A stretch of DNA of 64,000 nucleotides from an uncultured Enterobacteriaceae bacterium. GTDB taxonomy: Bacteria; Pseudomonadota; Gammaproteobacteria; Eutrophobiales; Eutrophobiaceae. The stretch lies in NCBI GenBank assembly GCA_964509455.1, contig CAZDXS010000075.1, forward strand, positions 7,131-71,130, read 5' to 3'. The notes under the pieces were generated by a model. It did not search any database. It was not told the DNA's origin and worked only from the letters and a program-made list of their open reading frames with translations. The position numbers and the translations under genes are program-made. This document shows, in pieces, positions 21,792-59,641 of the stretch. Each line of letters begins with the position of its first letter. Position 1 is the stretch's first letter.

Positions 21792-24700
21792 TCAGGCGGT
21801 AACCAGAGCTACGTCCGGATCCACGATGAAACTGCCGGCGGCGCCGGCGTACTGCTCGTAGTTCTCGCCGGCCACGGCGACATCGTCGCCCCGGGTGAAG
21901 TCGTCCAGGTCAAAACGCAGGGTGTCGTCGCCATCGCCGTCGATGCGAAGCTGATAGTTGCCGTCGCCGGCCGCCAGGACTGCCAGCGCTTCGGCGGAAA
22001 TGGTCAGGTCCGTGCTGCCGGCGCCTGCGCCCGCTAAGTCGATGTGCGCAACGCCCGCCAGGAGAGTGGCATCCACGGGAAGAAGCGCGGCGGCGGAGCC
22101 TGCCGATGCCGCGGTCTGCAACTCGGACACGACATCGAGGCCCGCAGAGTACGTAAAGCCGTCCAAGGCGCCGGGGCCGGCATTGCTCCAGCCGGACGCC
22201 AACAGCAAACCGTCCCCATCGTGAAAAGCCACCGTGTAGGCGGGGCCGGCGCCCAACAACGTTATCGTGTGCACCACCGGGTTGCCGGCGGCGCCCCACT
22301 GCCCGTGGAACTCCAGCCGCTCCAGCATGCCGTCGTTGTCGCTGTCGTAACCCACCCAGTCCGGCTTGCCGTTGGCGTCGTGGTCATAGCGGTGTTCGTC
22401 GATGGCGCCGTCCCCGTCCTCATCAACACTGGAGCGTTCCACGATGCCGTCATCGCCCTCATCGTAATCGGTGCGCACCACGGCGCCGGCCGCATTGCGC
22501 GTGTAGATCTCGGAGCGAATGACGGCGCCCTCTCCCATGTCATCCAACATGGCCTCAAACAGAGTGCGCACGACGGCCTCGTCAGCGGCAATGGTTTCCT
22601 GGCCGGCAACGCCCCGCGCACCGGGGCCGCCAGCGGCAGAGCGCCCCAGGCTGCCGCCGCCCGCTTCTCCGGATGCGGGGCCCTCGTCCTCGGCAGGCTC
22701 GCCGCTGAATACCATCACTTTCTTGGTCAGCCGCCCCTGGGCGTCGTAGGTATAGGTCTCGATGCGGTCCAGCGTGCCGTCGCCCTCATCATCGAACGTT
22801 GCTCGGTCCGTGGTCCCGTCCGCATCGTCATCGTAATCGGTCTGGATGACGTCCCCGGCGGCGTTCCGCACGTAGGACTCGGTGCGGTCCACCGTGCCGT
22901 CGCCCTCATCATCGAACGCGGCTCGGTCCGTGGTCCCGTCCGCGTCGTCATCAAAATCGGTCTGAATGACGTCCCCGGCGGCGTTCCGCGCGTAGGACTC
23001 GGTGCGGTCAACGCCGCCGTTCGCATCGTCATCAAAGTCCGTGCGAGTGATGTTGCCCTCGGCATCCCGCGCGTAGGCATCAATGCGGTCCGCCGTGCCG
23101 TCCCCATCGTCATCAAAGCGGGTGCGGATTATCTCGCCATTGGCGCCCCGCCGCACATAGTGCTCGATACTGGTGCGGATTATCTCGCCATTGGCGTCCC
23201 GCGTGAACGTCTCGGCGCGATAAGTATAGATATCCTGGTCCCGCAAACGGGGCATGGCGCCAAAAAAGGAAGAACTCTCATAACGGGCAAACTCGGTGCG
23301 GATGACATGGCCGGCGGCATCCCGCGTGTGGGTCTCAAGGGAGTATCTCGTATCCCCCACCCACGATGTCCGATAGAGGTCCCGATCAATATAGCCGTCC
23401 GCATCATCATCGTACTCGGCACGGACTAAAATGCGACCGCCCAACCACCTCCTGTAGGTCTCAATTCGGTCAACAACGCCGTCCGCATTCGGGTCGAAGT
23501 GGGCGCGATCCGCCGTGCGGTCCGCATCGTCATAGAAATCCGTGCGAGTGACGTCGCCCTCGGCATTTCGCGTATAGGACTCCCTACGGTCAGCGACGCC
23601 GTCCCCATCGTCATCGTAACTGGCGTGGATGATACGGCCATTGGCATCCCGCACGAAAGTCTCGAAGCGGTCAGTATCGTAGTCCGCATCATCATCGTGG
23701 TGAACGCGGTCAATACGGCCGTCATCATCGTCATCAAAATCGGAGCGGATGCCAACCCGCTTGCCGGCGCCGTCCCGCGCGTAGGATTCAATGCGCTCAG
23801 CGGTGCCGTCCCCATCCTTATCGTGACTGGCGCGGGCAACCCTGCCATTGGCGTCTCGCTCGTATGTCACGACGCGCTCAGCAGTACCATCCCCATTATC
23901 ATCGTAGCTTTCGCGGATTATTTCGCCATTGGCGTCCCGCGTGAACGTCGCGATGCGGTCCGCGACGCCGTCCGCACCGTTGTCAGTCTTGGTCCGGATG
24001 ATACGACCGGCGGCGTCCCGCTCATGAGTTATGATGCGAAAAGGGTCGACATCCCGCAAAAACACAGAGGGCAGGGTGCCATACGCGAATAGGTCGGGCC
24101 CATAACGAGCAAGTTCGGTGCGGATGATATGACCGTCGGCATCCCGCGCGTAGGTACTAAGGAGACTCCCATGGAGTTCCCGGTCAACATAGCCGTCCGC
24201 ATCATCATCGTACTCGGCGCGGTGTAATCCGCGACGACCATTGGCTCCCCACACGTAGGTCTCAATACGGTCAACAACGCCGTCCGCATTCGGGTCGAAG
24301 TGGGAGCGATCATAATAGCCGTGCGCACCGTCATAGAAATCCGTGCGAGTGACGTTGCCATCGACATTCCGCGTATAGGCCTCCCTGCGGTCAATGACGC
24401 CGTTTGCATCGTCATCGAAATCGATGCGAACCAACCAGCCTTTGCTGTCCCGCGTGAACGTCTCGGTGCGGTCCGCGTTGCCGTCCGCGTCCAGGTCGAT
24501 GCCAGCACGGTCCATGAGGCCGTCCCCATCCTCATCAAAGTCGGTGCGAGTTATCCCGCCATTGGCGTCCCGCGTGTATGTCGAGGTCACGACGCGATCA
24601 ACAGTGCCGTCCCCATTATCGTCGTGGCGGACGCGGTCGCGGTCGGCACGGCCGTCATTATCGTCATCGAAAACGGCGCGGATTACTTCGCCGTTGGCGT

Positions 24701-27700
24701 CCCGGGTGTATGTCGCGACGCGATCAGCGGCGCCGTCCCCATCCTCATCGTAACTGGTGCGGACTATTGCGCCGTTGGCGTCCCGCGCGTATGTGACGAC
24801 GCGGTCAGCAGTACCGTCCCCATCCTCATCGTAACTGGCGCGGATTATTGCGCCGTTGGCGTCCCGCGTGAACGTCTCGGTACGGTCCACGGAGCCGTCG
24901 GCGTCATCATCAAAATCGGTGCGAGTCACGCGGCCGTCATTGTCCCGCACGTAGAACCCGATGCGGTCCGCCGTGCCGTCGGCATTCGGGTCGAAATGGT
25001 CGCGGTCAACACGGCCGTCCGCATCATCATCGAAGCCGGTGCGGATTATCCCGCCATTGGCGTCCCGCGTAAACGTCTCGGCACGGTCCACGGCGCCGTC
25101 CGCGTCATCATCAAAATCGGTGCGAATTATGCGGTTGTGGCTGTCCCGCGTGTGGGTCTCGATGCGGTCCGCCGTGCCGTCGGCATTCGGGTCGAAATGG
25201 TCGCGGTCAACCTGCCAGTCCGCATCATCATCGAAGCCGGTGCGGATGATTTCTTTACCATCGTTTCGTTGGTAGGTCTCACCGCGGTCAAAAATGCCGT
25301 CGCCATCCAGATCAAAGAAAATCCAATCGATATGACCATCCAGATCCACATCGGTTCCGTATGTGAGTGCGGGCGGAATGTGCGGCAACCCAGTTTGTCT
25401 CGGCGCCTCGGTGCGGTCCGCCGTGCCGTCGGCATCGTCATCAAAATCGGTCCGTATCACGGCCCCGGCCTCATTCAGCGTATACGTCTCGGTGCGGTCC
25501 GCCGTGCCGTCGACATCGTCATCGAAGTCCGTCCGTATTACGGCCCCGGCCTCATTCCGCGCATACGTCTCGGCGCGGTCCGCCGTGCCGTCGACATCGT
25601 CATCGAAGTCCGTCCGCATTACGGCCCCGGCCTCATTCCGCGCATACGTCTCGGCGCGGTCCGCCGTGCCGTCGACATCGTCATCGAAGTCCGTCCGTAT
25701 TACGGCCCCGGCTTCATTCCGCGCATACGTCTCGGCGCGGTCCGTCGTGCCGTCCGCATCGTCATCGAAGTCCGTCCGTATTACGGCCCCGACTTCGTTC
25801 CGCACGTAGGTCTCGGTGCGCTCCGCCGGCGCCTGGTAGCGCAGGATGCCTCTCTTATCCGCGCCGAATACAAGTTCCGGCGCCTGGTCTCCGTCCAGGT
25901 CCGCAAATGTCGGCGCGGTGTCTCTAAAGCGACCAGCCTCGTCATAAACAGGGATGGAAGCAACGCCCAGCATCGGCGTAAACGCCGGCGCCTCAGCGTT
26001 GCCGGTGTTCTCAAAGTAGTCGAAGCCGCCTTTTCTCCCGCCCACCACCAGATCCAGGTCGCCATCGCCGTCCAGATCTGCGAACGCCGGCGTGGAATCA
26101 CGCCCGCCGCCAATGTCATGGAAAGGGTTGGCGCCGGCGCTCGTACGCTCCACAAACGTCGGAGTCGACGCGCTCCCCGTGTTCTCATAATAGCCGATGC
26201 CGCCGTCTCCCTTGCCCACTGCCAGGTCCAGGTCGCCGTCGCCGTCCAAGTCTGCGAATGTCGGGGCGGAACGACGCTCCTCAATGCCATGAAAAGGATT
26301 GTCGGCGGCGCCCGTTCGCTCTACAAACGTCGGGGCCGAGGCGTCGCCCGTGTTCTCATAATAGTCGATGGCGCGATCATGTATGCCCACCACCAGGTCC
26401 AGGTCCCCATCGCCGTCCAGGTCTGCGAGGGCCGGCGCGGCATTGTTAGAGTCGTACTCCCCCTCCGCATCTATGCCGTAAAAGGGATTGTTCGCGCCCT
26501 CCAGCGCCGTGAGCGTCAAGGCGCCGGCAAGGCCGCCGGTCTCATCATAGACGCTGTCGTTGCGGTAGTAATGCAAGGCATCGGAGTCGTCCTCGCCCAC
26601 CGCCAGGTCCAGGTCCCCATCACCGTCCAGGTCCGCGAATGTCGGCTTGACAGACCAATAGATACCGCCGAGTATGTTGTCGGCAACGGGTAGATTGGCG
26701 CCGACAACGGGTATAGTGTTGCCGAGGGTGAAGAGGCGGCTCCGGTCGGCATGATCATCGCCGTTGTCATCGAAGTCGATGCGATACAACTCGCCGTTGT
26801 CATTCCGCACGTAGGTCTCGGAGCGGTCCACCGCGCCGTCTGCGTCCGGGTCGAAGCGAACGCGATCAACGAGGCCGTCCAAATCGTCATCGAAATCTGT
26901 GCGGACTATGCCGCCATTGCTGTCCCGCGTGAACGACTCGATGCGGCCACCGTGGTAAACATGGTCGATATGGCCGTCCGCATCGTCATCGTATCCGGTG
27001 CGGACGATACGGCCGTTGGCGTCCCGCGTGAATGTCTTGATGCGGTCACCGTAGTTGACACGGTCGATATGGCCGTCCGCATCGTCATCGTAATCGGTGC
27101 GGACGATATGTCCATTGGCGTCCCGTGCAAACGTCTCGGTGCGGTCCACCGCGCCGTCGGCGCCGTCATCGAAATCGATGCGGATAATGTTCTCGGCACG
27201 GTTTCGCACGTAGGACTCAACGCGGTCCACCGTGCCGTCCGCGTCCGGGTCGAAGCGGACGCGGTCGCTGTAGCCATCCAAATCGTCATCGAAATCAGTG
27301 CGGACTATGCCGCCATTGCTGTCCCGCGTAAAAGTTTCGGTGCGGTCAACGACGCCATTACCATCGTCATCGTGGCGGGCGCGGTCGATATGGCCGTCAT
27401 CATCGTCATCGAAGTCGATGCGGACGCCAACCAGATCGCCATTGGCGTCCCGCACGTAAGACTCAATGCGATCAACAGTACCGTCCCCATCATCATCAAA
27501 ACTGGTGCGCTCGATCGCGCCATTGGCGTCCCGAACGTAAGACTCAATGCGCTCAGCAACGCCGTCTCCGTCATCATCAAAATTGGTGCGCGCGATCGCG
27601 CCATTGGCGTCCCGCACGTAAGCCTCAATGCGGTCAGCAACGCCGTCTCCGTCATCGTCAAAATTGGTGCGAGCGATCGCGCCATTGGCGTCCCGCACGT

Positions 27701-29954
27701 AAGCCTCAATGCGGTCAGCAGTACCGTCCCCATCGTCATCGTGACGGGCGCGGTCGATACGGCCATCCGCATCGTTATCGTAATCGGTGCGGATGATATG
27801 GCCGTTGGCGTCCCGCGTGAACGTCTCGATGCGGTCCCCGGTCCCGTCCGCATCGTCATCGTAATCGGTGCGGGAAATGCGGCCGTTGGCATCCCGCGTG
27901 AACGTCTCGATGCGGTCCCCGGCCCCGTCCGCATCGTCATCGTAATCGGTGCGGGAAATGCGGCCGTTGGCGTCCCGCGTGAACGTCTCGATGCGGTCCC
28001 CGGTCCCGTCCGCATCGTCATCGTAGTCGGTGCGGGAAATGCGGCCGTTGGCGTCCCGCGTGAACGACTCGGTGCGGTCCACGGCGCCGTCCGCATCGTC
28101 ATCGTAATCGGTGCGGACGATACGGCCGTTGGCGTCCCGTGTGAACGTCTCGATGCGGTCCACGGCCCCGTCCGCATCGTCATCGTAATCGGTGCGGACG
28201 GTACGGCCGTTGGCGTCCCGCGTGAACGTCTCGATGCGGTCCACAAGATCAACCAGGCGAGCGATGCCGTCAAAGCCCGTACGGCGGTAACCGAGGAAAC
28301 CGGCAATGCCGTCGTCATTGTAGTGGGCGCGGTCGACGCGGCCGTCATCATCGTCATCGAAATCTGTGCGGACGCCGACGAACGACATTTTATTAACGGC
28401 GGTATACCGCGCGTATGTCTCAATGCGATTAGCAACGCCGTCTCTATCATCGTCGAAAAAGTGAGTGCGGATGATGATACGACCGGTGGCGTCCCGCTCG
28501 TAGGTCTCGATGCGGTCCACGACGCCGTCCGCATCGTCATCATAATCGGTGCGGATGATACGGCCGTTGGCGTCCCGCTCGTAGGCATCGATGCGGTCCG
28601 CCGTGTCGTCCCCATTGTCATCGTAGTAAACACGGTCGATATGGCCATCCGCGCCATAATCGTGACTAGTGCGACTGATGCCGCCGTCGCCGTGCCGCCG
28701 CGTGAGAATAATGCGGTCATTGGCGCCGTCCCCATTCAAGTCGAAGTCAGAGTGGACGCGGCGGTCAATGACGCCGTCCGCATCGTCATCGTAATCGGTG
28801 TAGATAATATTGTTGCCCGCCCCGCCGTCACTGGCGGCGCGAAGGCGCACGGGATTGGCGTCCCACGCGTAGGTCTCAATTCGGTCCACGGCGCCGTCCG
28901 CATCGTCATCAAAATCCGTGCGAATGACATTGCCATGGATGTCCCGCGCATAGTGCTCGACGCGGTCCACGGCGCCGTCCCGGTCGTCGTCAAACTCGGC
29001 GCGGAATATAAAACGGTTTACAACGCCGTCATTGTCCCCCGCATAGTCCTCAATGCGGTCCAGCGTGCCGTCTGCATCGTCGTCAAACCCGGTGCGATCA
29101 ATGGAACCGTCCTGGTCGTCATCAAAATCGACGCGAACGATGTCGCCGTCGCCGTCGTACGTGTGGAATTCGACGCGATCAACGGCGCCGTCCCCATTGT
29201 CGTCATGCGCGGTGCGCCGGATGGAAAGCGCATTACGAGTCGGCGAAGGGCGATATCCAACATAGATGCGCTCCGCGATGCCGTCTGCGTCATCATCCCT
29301 GGCGAGCTGGAGTGTGGCCCGCTGAGAGGAGGGGGTCGGGGGGGGTCTGACGTCCAGCGTATAGTGCTCGACGCGGGAATTACCAAATTCGGTGCGAATT
29401 ATCCTGCCGTCAAAGCTCCGCGTATGGACTTGAGTTTCGTCAATGGCGCCGTCGCCGTTCCTGTCGTGTTCGAAACGAATTACATTGCCGTTGGCGTCCC
29501 GCGTGTAGATCTCGCTGCGATGAATGACGCCGTGGACGTTCTCATAATAGTCGGTGCGAACAACTCGGTCAGAGGCGTCCAGCGTGCGGACTATGACGCG
29601 GTTGGCAATGCCGTCCGTCCCTCTGGAAATCAGCCCGGAGCTAGATCGGACAGGGTGGTCGTAATAGTCGTAGTACGTGATCTCGCGCACAGCGCCGTCA
29701 GCATCCGTCTTCCTTACGGTGAACCATGCGGGGAACCCCCCCCATTGCGGATCGAACCTGCCCCACGAACCGTCCACGAAACTGTACCTGCCCTCCAGCA
29801 ACGGACCGGTTGCGGATATGCCGAAAAATTCGCGGCCAACGGGCCGGGCGCCTGCGCCCGGCGCGACCTGAGGCTCTATCGCCCCCGGGTCGTGAGGGTC
29901 TAGCGCCTCCGGGTCGTGATACTCTATTGCCGTCGGTTCAGCAACCATGATCAT
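21792..29954 (-). CDS. Giant repeat protein (2720 aa): FG-GAP-like propeller repeats, dozens of 24-aa Asp-rich YD-like repeats, a conserved C-terminal domain of about 150 aa, no signal peptide
   Basis: The 8.2-kb ORF has an RBS GGGGGAGAG upstream. Repeats of the form D.DDDADG.vDRiEtYtRDANGrIiRTd occur more than 40 times. FADLDGDGDLDLVVG....YYENTG units are present. The C-terminus ...HIDLAGAGAGSTDLTISAEALAVLAAGDGNYQLRIDGDGDDTLRFDLDDF..GDDVAVAGENYEQYAGAAGSFIVDPDVALVTA* is shared with the two plus-strand paralogs. Confidence 0.85.
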   Translation of the reverse strand: MIMVAEPTAIEYHDPEALDPHDPGAIEPQVAPGAGARPVGREFFGISATGPLLEGRYSFVDGSWGRFDPQWGGFPAWFTVRKTDADGAVREITYYDYYDHPVRSSSGLISRGTDGIANRVIVRTLDASDRVVRTDYYENVHGVIHRSEIYTRDANGNVIRFEHDRNGDGAIDETQVHTRSFDGRIIRTEFGNSRVEHYTLDVRPPPTPSSQRATLQLARDDDADGIAERIYVGYRPSPTRNALSIRRTAHDDNGDGAVDRVEFHTYDGDGDIVRVDFDDDQDGSIDRTGFDDDADGTLDRIEDYAGDNDGVVNRFIFRAEFDDDRDGAVDRVEHYARDIHGNVIRTDFDDDADGAVDRIETYAWDANPVRLRAASDGGAGNNIIYTDYDDDADGVIDRRVHSDFDLNGDGANDRIILTRRHGDGGISRTSHDYGADGHIDRVYYDDNGDDTADRIDAYERDANGRIIRTDYDDDADGVVDRIETYERDATGRIIIRTHFFDDDRDGVANRIETYARYTAVNKMSFVGVRTDFDDDDDGRVDRAHYNDDGIAGFLGYRRTGFDGIARLVDLVDRIETFTRDANGRTVRTDYDDDADGAVDRIETFTRDANGRIVRTDYDDDADGAVDRTESFTRDANGRISRTDYDDDADGTGDRIETFTRDANGRISRTDYDDDADGAGDRIETFTRDANGRISRTDYDDDADGTGDRIETFTRDANGHIIRTDYDNDADGRIDRARHDDDGDGTADRIEAYVRDANGAIARTNFDDDGDGVADRIEAYVRDANGAIARTNFDDDGDGVAERIESYVRDANGAIERTSFDDDGDGTVDRIESYVRDANGDLVGVRIDFDDDDDGHIDRARHDDDGNGVVDRTETFTRDSNGGIVRTDFDDDLDGYSDRVRFDPDADGTVDRVESYVRNRAENIIRIDFDDGADGAVDRTETFARDANGHIVRTDYDDDADGHIDRVNYGDRIKTFTRDANGRIVRTGYDDDADGHIDHVYHGGRIESFTRDSNGGIVRTDFDDDLDGLVDRVRFDPDADGAVDRSETYVRNDNGELYRIDFDDNGDDHADRSRLFTLGNTIPVVGANLPVADNILGGIYWSVKPTFADLDGDGDLDLAVGEDDSDALHYYRNDSVYDETGGLAGALTLTALEGANNPFYGIDAEGEYDSNNAAPALADLDGDGDLDLVVGIHDRAIDYYENTGDASAPTFVERTGAADNPFHGIEERRSAPTFADLDGDGDLDLAVGKGDGGIGYYENTGSASTPTFVERTSAGANPFHDIGGGRDSTPAFADLDGDGDLDLVVGGRKGGFDYFENTGNAEAPAFTPMLGVASIPVYDEAGRFRDTAPTFADLDGDQAPELVFGADKRGILRYQAPAERTETYVRNEVGAVIRTDFDDDADGTTDRAETYARNEAGAVIRTDFDDDVDGTADRAETYARNEAGAVMRTDFDDDVDGTADRAETYARNEAGAVIRTDFDDDVDGTADRTETYTLNEAGAVIRTDFDDDADGTADRTEAPRQTGLPHIPPALTYGTDVDLDGHIDWIFFDLDGDGIFDRGETYQRNDGKEIIRTGFDDDADWQVDRDHFDPNADGTADRIETHTRDSHNRIIRTDFDDDADGAVDRAETFTRDANGGIIRTGFDDDADGRVDRDHFDPNADGTADRIGFYVRDNDGRVTRTDFDDDADGSVDRTETFTRDANGAIIRASYDEDGDGTADRVVTYARDANGAIVRTSYDEDGDGAADRVATYTRDANGEVIRAVFDDDNDGRADRDRVRHDDNGDGTVDRVVTSTYTRDANGGITRTDFDEDGDGLMDRAGIDLDADGNADRTETFTRDSKGWLVRIDFDDDANGVIDRREAYTRNVDGNVTRTDFYDGAHGYYDRSHFDPNADGVVDRIETYVWGANGRRGLHRAEYDDDADGYVDRELHGSLLSTYARDADGHIIRTELARYGPDLFAYGTLPSVFLRDVDPFRIITHERDAAGRIIRTKTDNGADGVADRIATFTRDANGEIIRESYDDNGDGTAERVVTYERDANGRVARASHDKDGDGTAERIESYARDGAGKRVGIRSDFDDDDDGRIDRVHHDDDADYDTDRFETFVRDANGRIIHASYDDDGDGVADRRESYTRNAEGDVTRTDFYDDADRTADRAHFDPNADGVVDRIETYRRWLGGRILVRAEYDDDADGYIDRDLYRTSWVGDTRYSLETHTRDAAGHVIRTEFARYESSSFFGAMPRLRDQDIYTYRAETFTRDANGEIIRTSIEHYVRRGANGEIIRTRFDDDGDGTADRIDAYARDAEGNITRTDFDDDANGGVDRTESYARNAAGDVIQTDFDDDADGTTDRAAFDDEGDGTVDRTESYVRNAAGDVIQTDYDDDADGTTDRATFDDEGDGTLDRIETYTYDAQGRLTKKVMVFSGEPAEDEGPASGEAGGGSLGRSAAGGPGARGVAGQETIAADEAVVRTLFEAMLDDMGEGAVIRSEIYTRNAAGAVVRTDYDEGDDGIVERSSVDEDGDGAIDEHRYDHDANGKPDWVGYDSDNDGMLERLEFHGQWGAAGNPVVHTITLLGAGPAYTVAFHDGDGLLLASGWSNAGPGALDGFTYSAGLDVVSELQTAASAGSAAALLPVDATLLAGVAHIDLAGAGAGSTDLTISAEALAVLAAGDGNYQLRIDGDGDDTLRFDLDDFTRGDDVAVAGENYEQYAGAAGSFIVDPDVALVTA

Positions 29955-37891: not shown

Positions 37892-37894
37892 GCC

Positions 37895-39544: not shown

Positions 39545-39619
39545 GACGGGCGCGGGGCCGCGCGGGCGCGGCGGCGAGCGCAGGCACGGCGAGCGCCGCC
39601 GCGAACCTGTAACGCACTC

Positions 39620-44538: not shown

Positions 44539-45359
44539 CGGGCCCGCTTCAATCCCGTGGGGGTGAAGTCCCGGTCAGCCAGGTTGGTGCGGAAGCGATA
44601 GTCCGACCAGGTCAACACGGTGCTTTTGCCGGTCAGGTGGTTCTCCATGGTCAGGACGCCGGCGTACCAGTATTTTCCCAGGTACTGCGCATAGTCGCTC
44701 ACGGTGAGCGTCTTGAGCAACTCGTTGCGGCGGTCGTAGTATTCCACTTTCCAGGTGCGCAACTGGTCCCGGTCCTGCCACGCCAGCTGGCGGCTGTAGC
44801 CGGAGCGGCGGTCGGCGGGAATGCGCTCGGTGACGGCGCAGGTCAGCGCCCCGCAGGGCTCGTCGCGCAGGTAGCGGTAGGAGTACTTCTCCACCTCCTG
44901 GGCGGCCATGTCTTCGTAGGAAAACTCGCTGCCCATGAAAGAACCAGAGCGGTTGGCGGAGCTGATGCGCTTGACTCGCTTCAGGGCGGGCAGGTACAGC
45001 CACTGGTCGTCCGCTTCCGTCTTGTGCGTGTGCACCAGGAAGGCCGTGCCTTCCACGTCGCGCGGCTCGTCAAATACGAACAGGATCTTGTTGCCGTCGT
45101 CTGCCGTCTCCAGGGTCTTCACCCGGAGTGCGCGGCGGCTTTCCTGGCCTCTCTTGTTGCGCAACACCATGACCTGGCGGGCGGTGAAATCGCCGAAGCC
45201 CTGGGCCCGCTGGTCGGCTTCCCGGGCGATGGCCAAACCCAGCGCCGCCGCGTCGGCGCCGCCCGCCGCGGCCTCGGCGCCGCCCGCCGCGGCGGCATCG
45301 GCGCCCAGCGCCGCCGGCGCCCCGCCCCAGCACGTCGCCGCGATGAAAAACGCACCCAT
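44535..45359 (-). CDS. LolA-like outer-membrane lipoprotein-sorting family protein (DUF1329-like)
   Basis: The ORF is about 275 aa with the signal peptide MGAFFIAATCWGGAPAALG. It is in a conserved trio with the RND gene. A GADAAAAGG x2 low-complexity repeat lies near the N-terminus. Confidence 0.5.
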   Translation of the reverse strand: MGAFFIAATCWGGAPAALGADAAAAGGAEAAAGGADAAALGLAIAREADQRAQGFGDFTARQVMVLRNKRGQESRRALRVKTLETADDGNKILFVFDEPRDVEGTAFLVHTHKTEADDQWLYLPALKRVKRISSANRSGSFMGSEFSYEDMAAQEVEKYSYRYLRDEPCGALTCAVTERIPADRRSGYSRQLAWQDRDQLRTWKVEYYDRRNELLKTLTVSDYAQYLGKYWYAGVLTMENHLTGKSTVLTWSDYRFRTNLADRDFTPTGLKRAR

Positions 45360-45406
45360 GCCCTGGACGCCGCGCCGCCCGCGACGGGCGAATGAACGAA
45401 AGGAGC

Positions 45407-52400: not shown

Positions 52401-54685
52401 ACGATGCGAACGGCGTCGTGGAGCAGCTTGAGGTCTACGTTTTGGACGCGAACGGGGACCGCACGAAGACCACTACCCATGATCTGCCCCTGTCCTACGA
52501 AGCCGGGGGAGGAACTCTCTTCGACCTGATCGACGTGGGTGATCTGGCAACGCCGAAATTCGTTGACTTGGACGACGACGGCGACCTGGACCTGGTGATT
52601 GGCGAGTCGGACGGCAACATCCGTTATTTTAAAAATATCGGTAGTGCGTTGGCGCCAAGTTTCGAGATGCAACCGGATGATAGCTCCAACCCTTTTAACG
52701 GCATTGCCGTGGATGATAATTCAGCGCCGGCGTTTGCAGACCTGGACGACGACGGCGACCTGGACCTGGTAATTGGCGAGAGAGATAGTGGAATTCTTTA
52801 CTTCGAAAATACCGGCGATGCCGAGGAGGCGGAGTTCACAAAGCGGCAGGAAAGCACAGATGCTAATCCTCTCCCGGACGCCTCCGCTACTCGTCGCCCC
52901 GCGCCGGTATTCGTGGATTTGGACGGCGACGGCGACCTGGACCTGGTGGTGGGGAACAGCTCCGGCAGCGTCAATTATTTTGAGAATATCGGTAGCGCCT
53001 CAGCGCCGAACTTTACGCCGCGGACGAGTGAAAATTCCAACCCGTTCCACGGCATCCGTGCGTTATCGAGCTCGACTCCGACATTCGTGGACCTGAACGG
53101 GGACTCGGTGCCGGAACTTGTGGTCGGCAACAAGGCCGGAGGGCTCGCATACTACCAGCTTGTGTCTTCCCGGGTTGAGACTTACGTGCTTCACGCCGCC
53201 GGGCCGGTAACGCAGACCCATATCGACGCCGATGGGAACGGCACTATCGACCAAATAGAGTTTGACTATGACGCGGACGGACGCATCGACGTTGTCAAGC
53301 ATTACACGTTTGCCCAGAGCGGAGCGGCATCCTCCGCGCGAACCGAGTATTTTGGCAACGACAGCGATAGCGTGGCGGTTAAAACCGAATACGACAGCAA
53401 CGCGGACGGCACGGTGGACCGAATTGAACTGGACGAAGATGCGGACGGCACGGTGGACTGGATCGAGCGCCTCAGGGAATGGAACGCCGCCGGCGCGGCG
53501 ACGCGGCGCGATATTGACCGGGACGGCGACGGCACGATTGACGTTATCGAATGCTACAAGCTTAATGTTAACGGCGTTGCCCTCCAGAAAACGTACAAGC
53601 GCCCTGCCCCGCCCAACTCCTACGAGAAGATCGAGTTCTTTGATGGGCAGGAGCGCTTGTTGGCCGAGGTCAAGGATACTGACGGAGACGCAACCCTGGA
53701 CACTCTGAACTATGAGTCCGGGGTTGAGGTTACGTCCCGGCTGGTGGTTGCCGCGACCGCCGGTCCGGTAGTGGGTCATATTGACGCCAATGATCTGGCG
53801 GGCGTAAACCGGATCAACCTGGCGGGCGCCGGCGACGGCAACACGGACCTGACCATTTCCACCGAGGCGCTGAATATTTTTGTGCCGGCTAACGACAACA
53901 GCAGTTACCAATTGCGGATTGACGGCGATGGCGGTGACACCCTGCGGTTCGTTGCGAGTGACTTCACCAAGGGGGCTGATGTTACCGTTGACGACGTGCG
54001 CTACGAGAAATACAGCTGGGCGACCCGCAGTTTTATCGTTGCCTCGACCGTGGAGATTGAAGCGGTCAGAACAGTCCGCACTGATTTTTATGACGATGAC
54101 GGCAGCCATATTGACCGTTCCGAGTTCGACGCCGACGGGGACGGCGCCAGGGACCGGGGCGAGCGCTACGATCGGAACGCCGCCGGCGCCGTTGTTCAGA
54201 AAACGCACACGGGCGCTGACGGCTCTACCGAGCGCGTCGAGTTCCTTGATGAGGATGGGCGCCGGTTGGCCGAGTTCATAGATACTGACGATGAAGACGC
54301 TTCCCTGGACCGCCTCAGCTACAGCGAGGAGATTGGTGTTGTTTCCGAGATATTGGCCATGGCGGCCGGGCCGCCGGCGGCAGGCCGCATTGATGCGAAC
54401 GATCTGGTTGGCGTAACGCACATCGACCTGGCGGGCGCGGGCGCCGGCAACACGGACCTGACCATATCCGCCGATGCCCTGCGCGTGCTGGCGAAAAACA
54501 ACAACGATTACCAGCTGCAAATTAACGGCGACGGCGATGACACACTGCGCTTCGACTTGAATGAGTTCATCCAGGGAGACGACGTTGATGTCGGCGGTGA
54601 GAACTACGAGCAATATACCGCCGCCGGCGACTTCACCGGCAGTTTCATCGTGGATGCGGCCGTGATGACCCCGGTTGCCGCGTAA
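49475..54685 (+). CDS. Giant repeat protein paralog (about 1736 aa): FG-GAP-like propeller repeats, Asp-rich YD-like repeats, shared C-terminal domain, no signal peptide
   Basis: The RBS GGGAGGGGG lies 8 nt upstream of the ATG. More than 14 FG-GAP-like units (FADLDGDGDLDLVVG...YYENTG) are present. The C-terminus is ...NTDLTISADALRVLAKNNNDYQLQINGDGDDTLRFDLNEF...GSFIVDAAVMTPVAA*. Confidence 0.85.
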   Translation: MKQITRVLDEHGREILARLDFNGDGTVERVVRYVRNDDGNIIRTDYDNNADSWIERIVFDHDADGVADRTEYWRNYADSIHVDVSGDSFSGIPWADSGRDRDGAVDSVKYSTRDESRNLAYYDHDEGADGILDRTVVQTLNEAGRLKESRWYDPPFSYRVATDNGSAVFSADIGRNAAPALADLDGDGDPDLVVGSRSGEIHYFENTGNAAASTFTQRTGAEADDNPNPNPFHDIDVGPDDEEDLIVNAMPVLADLDGDGDLDLAVGRDDGTIEYYENTGNATSPVFTDRTGEDADPFRNLDGIGDRPAPTFEDLDGDDDLDLVVGKNDGSIGYYENTGGAAVPTFTKRTGAGVNPFHGVVGASSGAAPAFVDVDRDSDPDLVVGRSDGGFAYYENTSNRSVSGNAGSVAALTFTRREGDANPFNDLVTERWSAPAFAVWGIAPVPELVVGDQEGTLTYYEPTLSSYSLFVRGAGGPDARIMRVGSDEDGDGALDRIAHITHGPFSNIASSRIRTDVVEGAGLDINDDLDVNRIDHTYFYPNANGATARREHYTRDAAGNKIRTEVDKEADGVLDWVEAYTLNAAGHRTKVARYDFPLSYETGGANLLAFDDATVDVGDYSAPVFEDLDGDGDLDLIVGEGLGNIKYFENTGNAAAPAFEERTGNTGNNPNPFDGIDVDDRSTPTFADLNDDGDLDLVLGRDDGTLVYYENTGGATAPAFTKRTGAKGNDNPNHDPFHGFDVGDRSAPTFVDLDDDGDLDLVVGKNDGAIKYYENTGDAAAPEFTERTGAGSAENPDHNPFEGIDAGSNAAPTFTDWDRDGDLDLVVGERDGTLEYYENTGSESAPAFEERTGDTGDHPNPFHGFDAGSRSTPVFADLNGDSVSELMVGASSGKIKRHEPMLSRVETYTLDGNGDVVRTAFDDDADGTVDRVEHYTLDAGRRTQARIDNDADGTVDRIEHYALNDAGHRTHARMDNDANGVVEQLEVYVLDANGDRTKTTTHDLPLSYEAGGGTLFDLIDVGDLATPKFVDLDDDGDLDLVIGESDGNIRYFKNIGSALAPSFEMQPDDSSNPFNGIAVDDNSAPAFADLDDDGDLDLVIGERDSGILYFENTGDAEEAEFTKRQESTDANPLPDASATRRPAPVFVDLDGDGDLDLVVGNSSGSVNYFENIGSASAPNFTPRTSENSNPFHGIRALSSSTPTFVDLNGDSVPELVVGNKAGGLAYYQLVSSRVETYVLHAAGPVTQTHIDADGNGTIDQIEFDYDADGRIDVVKHYTFAQSGAASSARTEYFGNDSDSVAVKTEYDSNADGTVDRIELDEDADGTVDWIERLREWNAAGAATRRDIDRDGDGTIDVIECYKLNVNGVALQKTYKRPAPPNSYEKIEFFDGQERLLAEVKDTDGDATLDTLNYESGVEVTSRLVVAATAGPVVGHIDANDLAGVNRINLAGAGDGNTDLTISTEALNIFVPANDNSSYQLRIDGDGGDTLRFVASDFTKGADVTVDDVRYEKYSWATRSFIVASTVEIEAVRTVRTDFYDDDGSHIDRSEFDADGDGARDRGERYDRNAAGAVVQKTHTGADGSTERVEFLDEDGRRLAEFIDTDDEDASLDRLSYSEEIGVVSEILAMAAGPPAAGRIDANDLVGVTHIDLAGAGAGNTDLTISADALRVLAKNNNDYQLQINGDGDDTLRFDLNEFIQGDDVDVGGENYEQYTAAGDFTGSFIVDAAVMTPVAA

Positions 54686-54802: not shown

Positions 54803-57800
54803 ATGACGACTGAAACGACGATAATAGGGCATCCTGAGTATTATCCCCTGCCGGATGGGGGTTATTATTATTATGACTACCTGCCGGGCGTGGGTCATTT
54901 TATAGATTACCTACCGGAATTTCCGGTCGAAAACACCCGTCCCGTTGGTACGGCGGATACCGGTGGACGCGGGGCCCGCATCGATAGTAATGGGGACGGC
55001 ACCGTTGACCGCATTGAGCTCTACGCGCGAGACGCCAATGGGCGCATCATTCGCACCGACATCGATGATGGTGCGGATGGTACCGTTGACCGCGTTGAGG
55101 TCTATACGCGGAATGCCGAGGGCAATATCATTCGCACGGATTTTTATGACGATGCGCACGGCGCCGCCGATCGCGTCGAGTTCTACACGCGGGACGCTCA
55201 GGGCAATATTATCCGCACCGACTTCGATGACGATGCGAACGGCACGGTGGATCGCACCGTGTCGCATCCACAGGATCCTGGGAATACCGCACCGCCGCCT
55301 GCGGTCTCCCCACCGCAACCGCCCGAGGATTCCTCTCCGGAACAGGACGGGGTTAACACGCAGTCCGGCGCCATCGAAGTCGATGCGGACCGGGATGGGC
55401 ACGTCGACTGGATTGCTTTCGACACGGACGGAGACGGCGCGTTTGACCGCGTCGAAACCTACCAGCGCAACGACAACGGCGACATCATCTTCACCGGCTT
55501 CGATGACGATGCGGACGGCGCCGTCGACCGCACCGAGACCTACGCGCGGAACGACAATAGCGGATTGGCCCGCATCGACTTCGATGACGACGCGGATGGG
55601 CATGTCGACCGGAGCATGTTCTTCGACGGCGGCAGTTTTCTCGCCGTTGATGCGGGGCGGGCCTCCAAGCCGGCGTTCGCAGACCTGGACGGCGACGGCG
55701 ACCTGGACCTGGCGGTGGGAGACCGCTACGGCGCCCTGCATTACTATCGCAACGACAGCGTTTATGACGGGGCCGGCGGCCTTGTCGACGCCCCGGCGTT
55801 CACGGCGCTGGAGGGCGCGGACAATCCTTTTGACGGCATAAACGATAACGTGAACTGGGCGGACGCCCATAGCCGCCAGGCCGCGCCGACCCTGGCGGAC
55901 CTGGACGGCGACGGCGACCTGGACCTGGCAGTGGGCAGAAAAACCGGCGGCGTCAGCTACTACGAGAATGTGGGCAATACCGCCGCCGCGGCGTTTGTGG
56001 AACGGACGGGCGCCGGCGACAATCCTTTCCATGGCCTTGCGGTGGGGAGCAGGACCTTGCCGACGCTGGCGGATCTGGACGGAGACGGCGACTTGGACCT
56101 GGTAGCGGGCAAGAAAAAAGGCGTCATCAACTATTTTGAGAATACGGGGAGCGCTTCGGCGCCGGCGTTCGTAAAACGGAAAGGGGCGGATAATCCGTTC
56201 AGCGGCTTCGAGGCGGATGTTCGTTCCGCGCCGGCGCTCGCAGACCTGGACGGGGACGGCGACCTGGACCTGGTAGCGGGCAGAAGAAACGGCGGCGTCA
56301 AATACTATGAGAATGTCGGCACTGCCGCGGCGCCGACGTTCGTGGAAAGGGCGAGCGATGCGGGCGCCGGCGCCAATCCTTTTCACGGCATCAATGTAGG
56401 CTGGCTCGCCGCGCCCGCCGTTGCGGACCTGGACGGGGACCAGGCGCCTGAGTTCGTTTTCGGCATGCTCACGGGGAAACTCCTCTACTACCAGTCCTTG
56501 CAGTCTTTGCAACCCCGCATTGAATCCTACGCACGGGACGCCCAAGGCAATATTATTCGCACCGATTTTGATGACGATGGGGACGGCACGACGGATCGCA
56601 CCGTGACGCACCCGCAGGATTCCGGGAATGCCGCCCCGCCGCCTGCGGTCGCCCCGCCGCAGCCGCCTGATGACTCCTCTCTGGAACAGACCGGGGTTAC
56701 CATGCAGTCCGGCGCCATCGAAGTCGATGCGGACCGGGACGGCCGCGTCGACTGGATTTTCTTTGACCCGGACGGAGACGGCGCGTTTGACCGCGTCGAG
56801 GTATATGTGCGCAACGACAACGGCGACGTCATTCTCACCGGCTACGATGACGATGCGGACGGCCATGTTGACCGCGACCATTTCGACCCGAACGCCGACG
56901 GCGCAGTAGATCGCATCGAGACCCATACCTGGGACGGCAACGGCCGCATCGCCCGCACCGCTTTCGATGACAATGCGGACGGGTCGGCGGACCGCATCGA
57001 GACATACGTGCGGAACAGCGACGGGGACGTCATCCAGACCGACTTCGATAGCGACGCCGACGGCATCGTCAATCGCCGCGAGTTTGATGCGGACGCCGAC
57101 GGCGCCCCGGAGCGCACCGCAACGGATGGGGACGATGACGGCACGATGGACCGAGTCGCATTTGACGCCAATGAGGACGGCACGGCGAACCGCATCGAGC
57201 ACGACGATGACGGCGATGGGCATGCCGACCGGGTGGAGTTTGACGCGAACGATGACGGCGTGGTGGACCGCATCGAGTCCCACGAGCGGGACGGCGCCGG
57301 GCGCATCATCCGCATCGAGTCCCACGAGCGGGACGGCGCCGGGCGCATCGAGTCCTACGGGCGGGACGGCGCCGGTCGCATCATCCGCATCGTCTTTGAC
57401 GATGACGCCGACGGTACGGCAGAGCGCATCGAGTCCTACACCCGGGACGGCGCCGGGCGCATCGCCCGCACCGCCTTTGACGACAATGCGGACAGCACGC
57501 TGGATCGCATCGAGACCTATGTACGCAACGGCGCCGGGGGCGTTATCCAGACCGATGTTGACAGCGACGCCGACGGCATCGTCAATCGCCGCGAGTTTGA
57601 CGCGGACGGCGACGGCGCCCCGGAGCGCACCGCAGTGGATGGGGACGATGACGGCACGATGGACCGGGTGGCATTTGACGCGAACGAGAACGGCACGGCC
57701 GAGCGCATCGAGTACGATGACGACGGCGATGGGACTGCCGACCGGGCCGGGTTTGACGCCGATGAAGACGGCACGGCCGAGCGCACCGAGACGTATGTGC

Positions 57801-59641
57801 GGAACGGCGCCGGCGGCATCATCCAGATCGACATCGATGACGATGCGGACGGGCGGACCGACCGCACCCACTTTGACGCCAATGCGGACGGCGCCCCGGA
57901 GCGCACCGAGGCCTACGCGCGGCTCCCCAATGGTCATATTCAGCGCACCGACTTCGATGACGACGCCGACGGCGCAGTAGATCGTATCGAGACCTACCTG
58001 CGCTACCCCAACGGCAATGTTCTGCGCACTGATTTTGACGATGATGCGGACGGGACAACAGACCGCATTGAAGTCTATGTGCGCAACGGCGCCGGCGAGG
58101 TCATTCGCATGGACGCCGACGACGATGCGGACAACCATATTGACCGCACCATCTTCGACGCCAATGCGGACGGCGCCCCGGAGCGCACCATTTCCTACGC
58201 GCGAAACAGCGACGGCGACATCATTCGCACCGACTACGACGACAACGGCGACGGCCGGGTGGACCGCAGCCACATTGATCCGAACGGGGACGGCGTTCTG
58301 GACCGCATCGAAACCTATTACGAGCGGGACGACCAAGGCAACAGCCGCCGCACCGGGTTTGACGACGATGCGGACAACACCGTGGACCGCATTGAGTCCT
58401 ACGCGCGGGACGTCAACGGCCGCATCATCCGCGCGGATTTTGACGACGATGCGGACGGCACGGCGGACCGCGTGGAGGTCTATGCGTGGAACACCGCCGG
58501 CGCCGTTATTGGCACGTACTACGATGACAACGTGGACGGGGTCATCGACCGGGCCGCGTTCGATGACGAGGGCGACGGCACGGTGGACCGCATTGAGACT
58601 TACTCCTACGACGCCCACGGGAACCTGATCAAAAAAGTGATGGCGGTGGGCGGCGAGGGGGATGCCGGGGACGCCCCCGCCGCGGAGCCCGAGGGCGCCG
58701 GCCTGGGGCGCTCTGCCGCGGGCGCTCCTGATGCGCGGGGCGTTGCCGGCAAGGAAACCGTGGCCGCCGGCGCGGCGGTCGCGCGCACTCCGTTCGAGTC
58801 CATGCTGGATGATCTGGGAGACGGCGCCGTCATTCGCTCCGAGACCTACACGCGCAATGCGGCCGGGGACGTGGTGCGCACCGATTACGATGAGGGCGAT
58901 GACGGCATCGTGGAGCGTTCCAGTTTTGATGAGGCCGGAGACGGCATCGTGGACCGCTCCGAGACCTACGCGCACAATGCCGCCGGGGGCGTGGTGCGGG
59001 CCGAGGTGGAGCAGGACGGCGATGCTCTCGTGGATGAATACCGCTACGACCACGACGCCAACGGCCGGGTTGACTGGGTGGGCCGCGACGGCGACAACGA
59101 CGGCATGATGGAGCGGCTGGAGTTTCACGGGCAGTGGGGCGCCGCCGGCAATACGGTCGTACACACGATAACGTTGTTGGGCGCCGGCCCCGCCTACACG
59201 GTCGCTTTCCACGATGGCGACGGTTTGCTGTTGGCGTCCGGCTGGAGCAATGCCGGCCCCGGCGCCCTGGACGGCTTTGCGTACTCCGCCGGCCTTGATG
59301 TCGTGTCCGAGTTGCAGCCCGCGGCAACGCCAGGCGTTGCTAACGCGACTCTCCCTATTGATGCCACCCTCCTGGCGGGCGTTGCGCACATCGACCTGGC
59401 GGGTGCAGGCGCCGGCAGCACGGACCTGACCCTATCCGCCGCGGCGCTGGCGGTGCTGGCGGACGGCGACGGCAACTACCAGCTTCGCATTGACGGCGAC
59501 GGCGACGACACGCTGCGCTTCGACTTGGACGACTTCGCCCGGGGCGACGACATCGCCGTGGCCGGCGAGAACTACGAGCAGTACGCCGGCACAACCGGCA
59601 GCTTCATCGTGGATCCGGACGTAACCCTGGTCACCGCATAA
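54803..59641 (+). CDS. Giant repeat protein paralog (about 1612 aa), same architecture
   Basis: The RBS GGGGAGGG is present. Long runs of the 24-aa D.DDDADG..DR.E.Y.R...G.I.RTD repeat occur. FG-GAP-like units are present. The C-terminus ...GSFIVDPDVTLVTA* is nearly identical to that of the 2720-aa paralog. Confidence 0.85.
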   Translation: MTTETTIIGHPEYYPLPDGGYYYYDYLPGVGHFIDYLPEFPVENTRPVGTADTGGRGARIDSNGDGTVDRIELYARDANGRIIRTDIDDGADGTVDRVEVYTRNAEGNIIRTDFYDDAHGAADRVEFYTRDAQGNIIRTDFDDDANGTVDRTVSHPQDPGNTAPPPAVSPPQPPEDSSPEQDGVNTQSGAIEVDADRDGHVDWIAFDTDGDGAFDRVETYQRNDNGDIIFTGFDDDADGAVDRTETYARNDNSGLARIDFDDDADGHVDRSMFFDGGSFLAVDAGRASKPAFADLDGDGDLDLAVGDRYGALHYYRNDSVYDGAGGLVDAPAFTALEGADNPFDGINDNVNWADAHSRQAAPTLADLDGDGDLDLAVGRKTGGVSYYENVGNTAAAAFVERTGAGDNPFHGLAVGSRTLPTLADLDGDGDLDLVAGKKKGVINYFENTGSASAPAFVKRKGADNPFSGFEADVRSAPALADLDGDGDLDLVAGRRNGGVKYYENVGTAAAPTFVERASDAGAGANPFHGINVGWLAAPAVADLDGDQAPEFVFGMLTGKLLYYQSLQSLQPRIESYARDAQGNIIRTDFDDDGDGTTDRTVTHPQDSGNAAPPPAVAPPQPPDDSSLEQTGVTMQSGAIEVDADRDGRVDWIFFDPDGDGAFDRVEVYVRNDNGDVILTGYDDDADGHVDRDHFDPNADGAVDRIETHTWDGNGRIARTAFDDNADGSADRIETYVRNSDGDVIQTDFDSDADGIVNRREFDADADGAPERTATDGDDDGTMDRVAFDANEDGTANRIEHDDDGDGHADRVEFDANDDGVVDRIESHERDGAGRIIRIESHERDGAGRIESYGRDGAGRIIRIVFDDDADGTAERIESYTRDGAGRIARTAFDDNADSTLDRIETYVRNGAGGVIQTDVDSDADGIVNRREFDADGDGAPERTAVDGDDDGTMDRVAFDANENGTAERIEYDDDGDGTADRAGFDADEDGTAERTETYVRNGAGGIIQIDIDDDADGRTDRTHFDANADGAPERTEAYARLPNGHIQRTDFDDDADGAVDRIETYLRYPNGNVLRTDFDDDADGTTDRIEVYVRNGAGEVIRMDADDDADNHIDRTIFDANADGAPERTISYARNSDGDIIRTDYDDNGDGRVDRSHIDPNGDGVLDRIETYYERDDQGNSRRTGFDDDADNTVDRIESYARDVNGRIIRADFDDDADGTADRVEVYAWNTAGAVIGTYYDDNVDGVIDRAAFDDEGDGTVDRIETYSYDAHGNLIKKVMAVGGEGDAGDAPAAEPEGAGLGRSAAGAPDARGVAGKETVAAGAAVARTPFESMLDDLGDGAVIRSETYTRNAAGDVVRTDYDEGDDGIVERSSFDEAGDGIVDRSETYAHNAAGGVVRAEVEQDGDALVDEYRYDHDANGRVDWVGRDGDNDGMMERLEFHGQWGAAGNTVVHTITLLGAGPAYTVAFHDGDGLLLASGWSNAGPGALDGFAYSAGLDVVSELQPAATPGVANATLPIDATLLAGVAHIDLAGAGAGSTDLTLSAAALAVLADGDGNYQLRIDGDGDDTLRFDLDDFARGDDIAVAGENYEQYAGTTGSFIVDPDVTLVTA

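Follow-up and report, generated by a model that had tools for sequence, protein, structure and literature searches.

Among the closest described counterparts of the locus considered here are giant RTX adhesins of the LapA/BapA/MpIBP type. A minimal definition of an RTX adhesin comprises a retention module, Ig-like extenders and a beta-roll plus signal (bioRxiv 10.1101/2025.09.30.679566). [quoted passage not shown] Three genes, called A, B and C here, lie in the 64-kb stretch of DNA that we analyzed (the window). Like the LapA/BapA/MpIBP-type adhesins, their products are giant, acidic, almost Cys-free and without a signal peptide, their bulk consists of calcium-binding-type tandem repeats broken by probable binding modules, and they end in an uncleaved C-terminal region with a putative export role; a homolog in another genome (L001) furthermore combines a BapA prefix with an adjacent LssB-type T1SS. 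Unlike those adhesins, A, B and C have neither a retention module nor a GGxGxD beta-roll, their extenders are predicted 27-residue hairpins rather than Ig-like domains of ~100 residues, and their shared tail fits no T1SS model. They fall outside the minimal definition of an RTX adhesin. We consider it most likely, with a probability of roughly 0.7, that A, B and C are calcium-dependent T1SS cargo whose T1SS is encoded outside the window. The features on which this reading is built, together with neighboring genes that bear on an alternative, are as follows.

14569-20079: MSHA-like cluster (secretin, TPR protein, MshE-type ATPase, platform protein)
21792..29954, minus strand: gene A, giant acidic repeat protein of 2720 aa (pI 4.2, 0 Cys, net charge -352)
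21795..22304, minus strand: A, shared C-terminal domain, 170 aa (core ~last 90 aa), up to the stop codon
22710..25799 (approximate), minus strand: A, second array, 27-aa and 13-aa units
25800..26672, minus strand: A, five FG-GAP units
26730..29699 (approximate), minus strand: A, first array of 27-aa units, predicted EF-loop/YD-hairpin, with scattered 13-aa loop-only units
49475..54685, plus strand: gene B, 1736 aa counted from ATG (ORF open from TTG 49469)
49991..50878, plus strand: B, FG-GAP cluster 1, four clear units and one degenerate
51320..52210 (end approximate), plus strand: B, FG-GAP cluster 2, five units
52532..53190 (end approximate), plus strand: B, FG-GAP cluster 3, four units
53555..54067, plus strand: B, internal copy of the C-terminal module (aa 1361-1531 of database protein P0010)
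54176..54682, plus strand: B, terminal copy of the C-terminal module (aa 1568-1735 of P0010)
54803..59641, plus strand: gene C, 1612 aa counted from ATG (ORF open from GTG 54797)
54974..55621, plus strand: C, first array of 27-aa units
55649..56520 (end approximate), plus strand: C, five FG-GAP units
56521..58690 (approximate), plus strand: C, second array, 27-aa and 13-aa units plus a single Pro-rich linker
59129..59638, plus strand: C, shared C-terminal domain, 90% identical to that of A
63029-63988: second T2SSF-like gene

The sequences bear out A, B and C as genuine genes and as paralogs of one another. A sequence-only reading of this DNA had proposed three paralogous ORFs occupying about 28% of the window, and all three are present as listed, with a total of 18.2 kb. 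Gene C lies on the same strand as B, 111 bp 3′ of it. In BLASTP alignments A and C share 44% identity across ~1560 columns and B and C 32% across ~1640 columns, while at the DNA level the final 605 nt of A match those of C with 88.6% identity. B counted from its ATG at 49475 is identical to P0010; separately, nine window proteins are present in the protein collection, and six are singletons there at the level of 90% identity. The three chains have pI values of 4.05-4.21, 0, 1 and 0 Cys, respectively, and net charges of -213 to -352, and this acidity, the scarcity of Cys and the calcium-binding-type repeats match the general traits of T1SS substrates. The lack of an N-terminal signal peptide, also proposed earlier, agrees with a hydropathy scan of the first 70 aa, where the maximal 12-residue Kyte-Doolittle mean was ≤1.0 and no hydrophobic N-terminal segment appeared; upstream extension of the ORFs is impossible, and A, B and C contain no transmembrane segment.

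The probable binding modules are FG-GAP clusters of four to five units each, with 5, 14 and 5 motif units in A, B and C. Pfam FG-GAP/FG-GAP_3 (PF01839 / PF13517) matched B at 3e-38 and 2.5e-31 and C at 1e-12; in A, PF01839 reached only 0.004, below the cut-off, yet five clear motif units are present, so the FG-GAP-like units first noticed in the sequence exist in all three proteins. Propellers, as proposed earlier for these units, would be seven-bladed in FG-GAP/VCBS proteins; each cluster here shows only 4-5 units. FG-GAP/VCBS proteins with RTX repeats, such as a Hoeflea sp. “calcium-binding protein,” have similar FG-GAP_3 clusters (45-50% identity), but lack the 27-residue array and the tail, with query coverage of only 11-24%. 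FG-GAP modules are common in T1SS-type cargo, given that many FG-GAP/VCBS proteins carry HemolysinCabind repeats.

The Asp-rich repeat has a period of 27 residues (81 bp) rather than the 24 originally assigned, and the consensus given with that assignment itself contains 27 letters. Distances from one DxDxDG loop to the next peak at 27 and 13 residues, the 13-residue short form being the loop only. TRF returned 81-bp arrays, among them, in gene A, those at 27766-28242 (5.9 copies, 93% match) and 25407-25828 (5.2 copies, 93% match). An HMM of the unit matched A, B and C 74, 18 and 43 times (47, 5 and 22 near full length). In each unit a 12-residue EF-hand-type loop, DxDxDGxVDRxE, precedes a predicted beta-hairpin, (Y/F)xRDxxGxIIRT, with D-D-D-A-D-G-T-A/V-D-R-I-E as the consensus at unit positions 3-14. 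DxDxDGxxD loops number 68 in A, 21 in B and 40 in C; 34, 8 and 14 loops conform to a strict 12-residue pattern, and nine loops have Pro at loop position 2.

As in EF-hands of the lanmodulin/calmodulin family, the unit consensus has a 12-residue loop whose ligand residues fall on positions 1, 3, 5, 7, 9, and 12, and the loop consensus D3-x-D5-x-D7-G8-x-V10-D11-R-x-E14 fits canonical EF-hand positions 1, 3, 5, 6, 8, 9, and 12. Among PDB sequences, EF loops of lanmodulin (E 8e-6) were the sole meaningful matches to the repeat; Symfoil beta-trefoil matches to the repeat profile were taken as compositional. No EF-hand Pfam family matched A, B or C, and unlike in EF-hands, each loop is predicted to lie between beta-strands rather than helices. 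According to these predictions the DxDxDG loop has another structural setting here than in the EF-hand, a helix-loop-helix that is usually paired.

The other half of the unit points to YD/RHS repeats (PF05593, TIGR01643), the beta-hairpin repeats with a Y-x-(Y/R)-D-x-x-G-x-(L/I) core that form Rhs, Tc-toxin and teneurin shells. We take the 27-residue unit for a variant of the YD repeat that includes a calcium loop, because its profile relatives pass Pfam RHS_repeat PF05593 on equivalent loop-plus-hairpin segments, and because an AlphaFold model of the repeat, of low confidence (pLDDT 62, pTM 0.35), has one beta-hairpin per unit and finds its best structural likeness in Rhs/teneurin YD shells. 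The idea of a YD-like repeat holds, while the repeat is not wholly novel as had been suggested, its relatives already passing PF05593. A, B and C do differ from known YD/RHS repeats in their 27-residue period, in the full 12-residue EF-hand-type loop linking the hairpins, and in having mostly (Y/F)xRD in place of “YD”; they stay below both model thresholds, and with E values allowed up to 10, neither PF05593 nor TIGR01643 matched A, B, C or a repeat block of 300 aa. At the same E limit, the thrombospondin type 3 (TSP3) and dockerin families were not among the matches listed for the block, in a search whose filters may drop weak matches above E ~0.1. TSP3 repeats also differ in cysteine content from A, B and C, which have 0-1 Cys. 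GGxGxD has zero matches in A, B and C, and PF00353 none. No Ig-like family was detected in them, their bulk being predicted 27-residue hairpin units. Unlike the Bordetella CyaA RTX block V with its C-terminal cap (PDB 9p6c, 6sus, 7rah), the three proteins have no nonapeptides, and the identity is only 15%. We found no Pfam or NCBIfam family for the repeat, and no description of this repeat or of the tail in the literature.

The C-terminal region that had been noted as conserved is indeed shared, in four copies with a mean column identity of 69%; the second copy in B, which lies internally, had been missed. An exhaustive HMMER scan of 1.84 billion representative proteins found the domain in 38, and the nothing returned by a word-indexed search with 145 aa of the tail is therefore a sensitivity artefact. 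Members from different genera share the conserved domain. In 27 of 36 family members no more than 6 residues separate its end from the stop, 13 members have multiple copies, and the 27-residue unit also occurs in 18 of the 38 proteins. The tail had been regarded as a feature of the extreme C-terminus. However, the domain recurs internally and lies far from the C-terminus in some members, such as P0140 and P0144; therefore, it cannot be a terminal signal alone. Its structure model is confident. Searches against Pfam and NCBIfam placed the tail in no family, whether related to secretion or not; TIGR03661, which had been named as a candidate, had no match at E up to 10 in three tail copies or in distant members. 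Low-scoring YaaA, DUF1949 and AcuR matches from the Pfam and NCBIfam searches with tail or repeat were set aside as compositional noise. Tail profiles gave nothing meaningful against PDB chains at the sequence level, and Foldseek comparison of the tail model with the PDB was not significant (best E 0.15).

Relatives of the tail connect it to type I secretion. P0121 and P0130 have a BapA_N domain and P0122 a BapA prefix below threshold, P0143 carries four RTX nonapeptide stretches immediately N-terminal to its tail, and P0148 and P0153 have RTX-type matches. L001, from an uncultured Rhodobacteraceae MAG (CANMTD010000001.1), is a hypothetical-protein gene at 7346-10339 encoding 997 aa, with a BapA prefix (NF033677, 48.3 bits vs. 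a cut-off of 35), ~25 27-aa units and a tail domain ending at the stop. Directly 3′ of it are a TolC-like gene, an LssB-type T1SS ABC transporter (TIGR03375, 696.7 vs. 693.1) and HlyD (TIGR01843, 308.5 vs. 208.65). This T1SS linkage of the tail family is seen at one locus, the sole genome locus recovered. At the loci of the homologs P0085, P0160, and P0161 we found transposases and housekeeping genes, and no T1SS genes. The single match from two metagenome scans (L004) proved spurious and frame-broken, and its neighboring ORFs are unrelated to the T1SS genes of L001. The L001 protein and the Ruegeria atlantica proteins WP_170565347.1 and WP_217356593.1 resemble A, B and C in a 27-residue unit, FDLDADGxxDRIETYTLNAAGQRT, and in a tail that ends at the stop. 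They are much shorter (267-997 aa) and without FG-GAP clusters, and L001 has a BapA prefix and a linked T1SS, A, B and C having neither.

A relative's tail adjoins a type I secretion machine, which makes secretion to the surface the most likely role for A, B and C, as proteins of unusual build. The conserved domain at the stop in all three is a putative T1SS export signal. The T1SS assignment made earlier from the lack of a signal peptide and the conserved C-terminus gains indirect support from the terminal position in 27 of 36 members, from the co-occurrence with BapA prefixes and RTX repeats and from the L001 operon, but loses some ground to the internal tails. As also noted then, the 64-kb window contains no T1SS ABC, MFP or OMP genes. 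Secretion, calcium-driven folding and adhesion are all what we infer for A, B and C, and the label “adhesin” is likewise our inference, the retention module being absent.

That label is what the best-surviving alternative disputes. A, B and C could be T1SS cargo of a non-adhesin kind, a released calcium-dependent matrix, an S-layer-like coat or a metal-sequestering scaffold acting through its acidic loops, which we think considerably less probable than the reading given above. No match to BapA_N, NF033677 or a retention module was found in A, B or C. The extreme loop density, the nine loops with Pro at position 2 and the lanmodulin match as the only one among PDB sequences would also suit such a role, but the FG-GAP modules and the BapA-prefix homolog L001 suggest surface binding, and the lanmodulin match is confined to generic EF loops. 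The YD likeness raises another alternative, that of a polymorphic-toxin-like protein of the T6SS or Tc type, in which a hairpin cocoon, perhaps plugged by the FG-GAP module, surrounds a C-terminal payload. The profile relatives that pass PF05593 speak for it, and in Tc toxins and teneurins shells are combined with propellers. However, the Rhs core/autoprotease motif DPxGL and a variable toxin tip are absent from A, B and C, PF05593 and TIGR01643 do not match them, the repeat model is of low confidence, PAAR, VgrG and immunity genes were not detected nearby, and the C-terminus, far from being polymorphic, is conserved from one paralog to the next and between genera. This makes a toxin improbable. 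Still less probable is that A, B and C serve the adjacent MSHA-like type IV pilus or T2SS-type machinery, as its substrates or its partners. The end of gene A is ~1.7 kb from the MSHA-like cluster and a further T2SSF-like gene lies at 63029-63988, but genes for an EamA transporter and a tRNA-Leu stand between gene A and the cluster, homologs elsewhere are unlinked to such machinery, and A, B and C lack the Sec or Tat signal that T2SS cargo requires. On these grounds we rejected the Rhs-toxin and T2SS-substrate readings. That the three are chance open frames in high-GC repetitive DNA, as overlapping antisense ORFs (e.g., 54911-59389 on the minus strand, 1492 aa, and 26751-29903 on the plus strand, 1050 aa) and a GC3 of 0.72-0.78, below that of neighboring genes, might suggest, is effectively refuted by Pfam FG-GAP matches in these frames down to 3e-38, homologs at 72% identity over 83% of length on other contigs, and a confidently modeled tail kept across genera.

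If A, B and C are calcium-dependent T1SS cargo, a route of export can be proposed. In the low-calcium cytoplasm the chains would stay unfolded, with net charges of -213 to -352, no more than one cysteine each, and DxDxDG loops, 21-68 per chain, that are empty. The uncleaved C-terminal domain would bind an LssB/HlyB-type ABC transporter, HlyD adaptor and TolC channel, exit first and fold outside the cell. Each 27-residue unit might then take up Ca2+ in its EF-hand-type loop and snap into a YD-type beta-hairpin, and hairpin folding would stop back-sliding, as in the ratchet of RTX proteins. Ligand binding would probably fall to the FG-GAP clusters, and the hairpin arrays would form a stalk or scaffold. 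Since an N-terminal retention module was not found, the proteins may go free instead of staying plugged in the outer membrane.

More tentatively, A, B and C may represent an RTX-free class of T1SS cargo, a joint proposal that we regard as possible rather than probable. The unmodelled C-terminal domain of ~90-170 residues would be both the export signal and the first folding nucleus, and internal tail copies in longer proteins could be intermediate ratchet points. The place of the GGxGxD beta-roll, and of the Ig-like extenders too, would be taken by the 27-residue EF-loop/YD-hairpin unit, and the arrays might close into Rhs/teneurin-like shells with five-unit FG-GAP modules as caps.

A, B and C reveal no new kind of cellular system. 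If our reading is right, two building blocks absent from current libraries, the rare tail domain and the calcium-loop YD repeat, become modellable, and the models would let annotators spot giants whose present label is “hypothetical” or no more than “FG-GAP repeat protein.” Calcium-switchable protein design would also find an attractive subject in the 27-residue unit, which is short and regular. For this family, the rare tail domain would mark probable T1SS cargo without RTX repeats, the calcium-loop YD variant would serve as its stalk, and the ratchet by which calcium-driven folding powers type I secretion would be buildable from EF-hand-type loops and YD hairpins, with no nonapeptide beta-roll.

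The three giant acidic ORFs A, B and C, which have a C-terminal domain (the tail) in common, are all present where a sequence-only reading had described them, and each lacks a hydrophobic N-terminal segment, in line with its claim of no signal peptide:

21792-29954, (-), A, ORF of 2720 aa
49469/49475-54685, (+), B, ORF open from 49469, ATG start at 49475
54797/54803-59641, (+), C, ORF

Their proposed paralogy is borne out, the final 605 nt of A and C being 88.6% identical. The proteins have pI 4.05-4.21, net charges of -213 to -352 and next to no cysteine (A 0, B 1, C 0). Neither a transmembrane segment nor a GGxGxD or DPxGL motif was found in any of the three. DxDxDGxxD loops number 68 in A, 21 in B and 40 in C, and FG-GAP clusters of four or five units each (one in A, three in B, one in C) are placed between hairpin arrays.

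The repeat had been assigned a period of 24 residues, which is corrected here to 27. DxDxDG loop spacing peaks at 27 and 13, and the 81-bp arrays reported by Tandem Repeats Finder reach 5.9 copies with a 93% match. In the consensus of 27 units at exact spacing, DFDDDADGTADRIETYTRDANGAIIRT, EF-hand loop positions 1, 3, 5, 6, 8, 9 and 12 (the loop being unit positions 3-14) are occupied by D, D, D, G, Ala/Val, D and E; the rest, (Y/F)xRDxxGx(I/V)xRT, is similar to the YD-repeat core, and the 13-residue form is the loop without the hairpin. A unit HMM matches 74 times in A, 18 in B and 43 in C. In A, B and C the unit goes unrecognised by Pfam and NCBIfam at any E up to 10. A repeat-block profile search retrieved 92 proteins at E <= 1e-5, 15 of them with PF05593 (RHS_repeat), and in the homologs P0171 (256-295) and P0181 (149-185) this match falls on a hairpin/DxDxDG-loop/hairpin segment like the window unit. 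The earlier description as a novel YD-like repeat therefore stands as to YD likeness, given PF05593 on equivalent segments of relatives, but not as to full novelty; the most apt description of the unit is a variant of the YD repeat that carries an EF-hand-type loop. An AlphaFold model of a repeat block, of low overall confidence (pLDDT 62, pTM 0.35; 80-86 in the first 40 residues), has one beta-hairpin per unit (strands RIETFTR and RIVRTDY) with the acidic loop between hairpins. Among solved structures, the only sequence relatives of the unit are lanmodulin EF loops (E 8e-6). Nine EF-type loops (six in A, three in C; e.g., HFDPNADGTADRIE) have Pro at loop position 2, as known from the lanthanide-selective EF hands of lanmodulin.

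The four tail copies, one each in A and C and a pair in B, have a mean column identity of 69%. The tail has no matching family in Pfam or NCBIfam, no match to TIGR03661, the model proposed earlier as a check, and no sequence match among PDB chains. When 1.84 billion representative proteins were scanned exhaustively with HMMER, only 38 had it at E <= 1e-3, and in 18 of these the 27-residue unit co-occurs. By these comparisons the tail is a rare family without an existing model. It lies at most six residues from the protein end in 27 of the 36 proteins containing the 3' part of the domain, and 13 proteins have multiple copies, a few hundred residues apart. The named members, from Ruegeria atlantica and Paremcibacter congregatus, are both labelled 'hypothetical protein'.

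Distant members carry hallmarks of type I secretion system (T1SS) cargo: BapA_N in P0121 and P0130, where it scores at or slightly under the Pfam cut-off, four RTX nonapeptide stretches immediately upstream of the tail in P0143, and RTX-type matches in P0148 and P0153. A scan of 185,579 species genomes gave a sole locus, L001, in an uncultured Rhodobacteraceae MAG (CANMTD010000001.1). Its 997-aa protein has a BapA prefix (NF033677, 48.3 vs cut-off 35) and about 25 units of FDLDADGxxDRIETYTLNAAGQRT, followed by the same tail as in A, B and C up to the stop. The genes 3' of it are:

next gene, TolC-like outer-membrane protein
second gene, ABC transporter, passing TIGR03375 type_I_sec_LssB (696.7 vs 693.1)
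third gene, HlyD adaptor, passing TIGR01843 (308.5 vs 208.65)

This linkage, seen at one locus, is the strongest T1SS evidence; at three other homolog loci the neighbours are transposases and housekeeping genes. As had been claimed, the 64-kb window holds no T1SS genes; in type I secretion generally, cargo is often encoded away from its transporter. We put the probability that A, B and C are T1SS cargo at roughly two in three (0.68). Of the earlier claim of a T1SS substrate and giant adhesin, the first part is indirectly supported by the L001 linkage and the family hallmarks; 'adhesin' is held with less confidence.

Beyond this observed anatomy, family distribution and linkage, we infer export, calcium dependence and adhesion. 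A, B and C would leave the cell C-terminus first through a T1SS whose genes lie in another part of the genome, their chains kept unfolded in the low-calcium cytoplasm, and would fold outside from the tail backwards, each loop binding Ca2+. Such folding would have parallels in RTX domains, for which a ratchet and templated folding have been described (PMC8486122, PMC9120197), and in RTX adhesins, whose extenders are stiffened by calcium (PMC7493085). Binding is the likely role of the FG-GAP clusters. Absence of a retention module suggests that the proteins are released, or anchored by other means. Roles as a released matrix or in metal binding count as variants of the T1SS-cargo explanation. 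An Rhs-type toxin cocoon agrees with the fold matches, but A, B and C have neither its core motif nor a variable tip, and no partner genes were detected nearby. The missing signal peptide speaks against export through the adjacent MSHA-like pilus/T2SS cluster; the window's genes of this type are:

4344-5141, (-), prepilin-type N-methylation-motif protein
14569-20079, (-), MSHA-like type IV pilus/T2SS-type cluster (secretin, TPR protein, ATPase with MshEN domain, T2SSF platform protein)
63029-63988, (-), second T2SSF-like gene, at the window end

Chance ORFs are excluded by Pfam FG-GAP matches (FG-GAP_3 3e-38 and FG-GAP 2.5e-31 in B, 1e-12 in C, weak in A), a homolog of C on another contig (72% identity, 83% coverage of C) and the tail family in other proteins. 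The database protein P0010 is identical to B read from its ATG. The frames listed are the coding ones; long ORFs on the antisense strand, as seen here, commonly arise from high-GC repeats.

Six of nine window proteins looked up are sole members of their 90% clusters. The giant genes (21.8-31.8 kb and 48-56 kb) have a GC of 0.59-0.64 vs 0.65-0.73 in neighbours and a GC3 of 0.72-0.78 vs 0.79-0.91, which could reflect horizontal acquisition or merely Asp-rich composition. A tRNA-Leu(CAA) gene (21378-21464, (-)) lies ~330 bp downstream of the A stop. In a related genome, at least four paralogs (P0002, P0003, P0005, P0008), two with duplicated tail modules as in B, share one 33,193-nt NCBI contig, so multi-copy expansion is a lineage trait. 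The homologs P0085, P0160 and P0161 (metagenome loci L002, L003 and L005, all ENA sample ERZ25068762) each sit amid IS/transposase genes, and P0085 is apparently fragmented downstream, which suggests mobile or decaying genes in that sample. Elsewhere in the window, 37151-40777 (+) encodes an NTP transferase, a PEP phosphomutase fused to a second NTP-transferase domain and a TPP-dependent decarboxylase-like enzyme, likely a phosphonate biosynthesis set. At 36880-37210 a 110-bp unit occurs three times (90% match), covering the phosphoglucose isomerase gene end and the MobA-like NTP-transferase gene start (ATGAAAGCCGTCATCCTGGCGGCCGGC...), so the 5' end of the latter appears triplicated. ORFs 8127-11261 (-), 1044 aa, and 12565-14193 (-), 542 aa, have no Pfam match; their GC3 is coding-like, and they lie in or beside the part of the window where GC is highest (0.72-0.73). 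Directly upstream of B on the opposite strand, 43267-48921 (-) carries genes for DUF1302-like (weak match) and LolA-like/DUF1329 proteins, an MMPL/RND-type transporter and an MpaB/Lcp-type oxygenase.

In function, A, B and C look like RTX-adhesin-type cargo. For an RTX adhesin, a working definition given recently requires a retention module, Ig-like extenders and a nonapeptide beta-roll (bioRxiv 10.1101/2025.09.30.679566); all three are missing in A, B and C, which are therefore not classed as RTX adhesins. The three proteins are relevant to annotation, T1SS biology and protein design.
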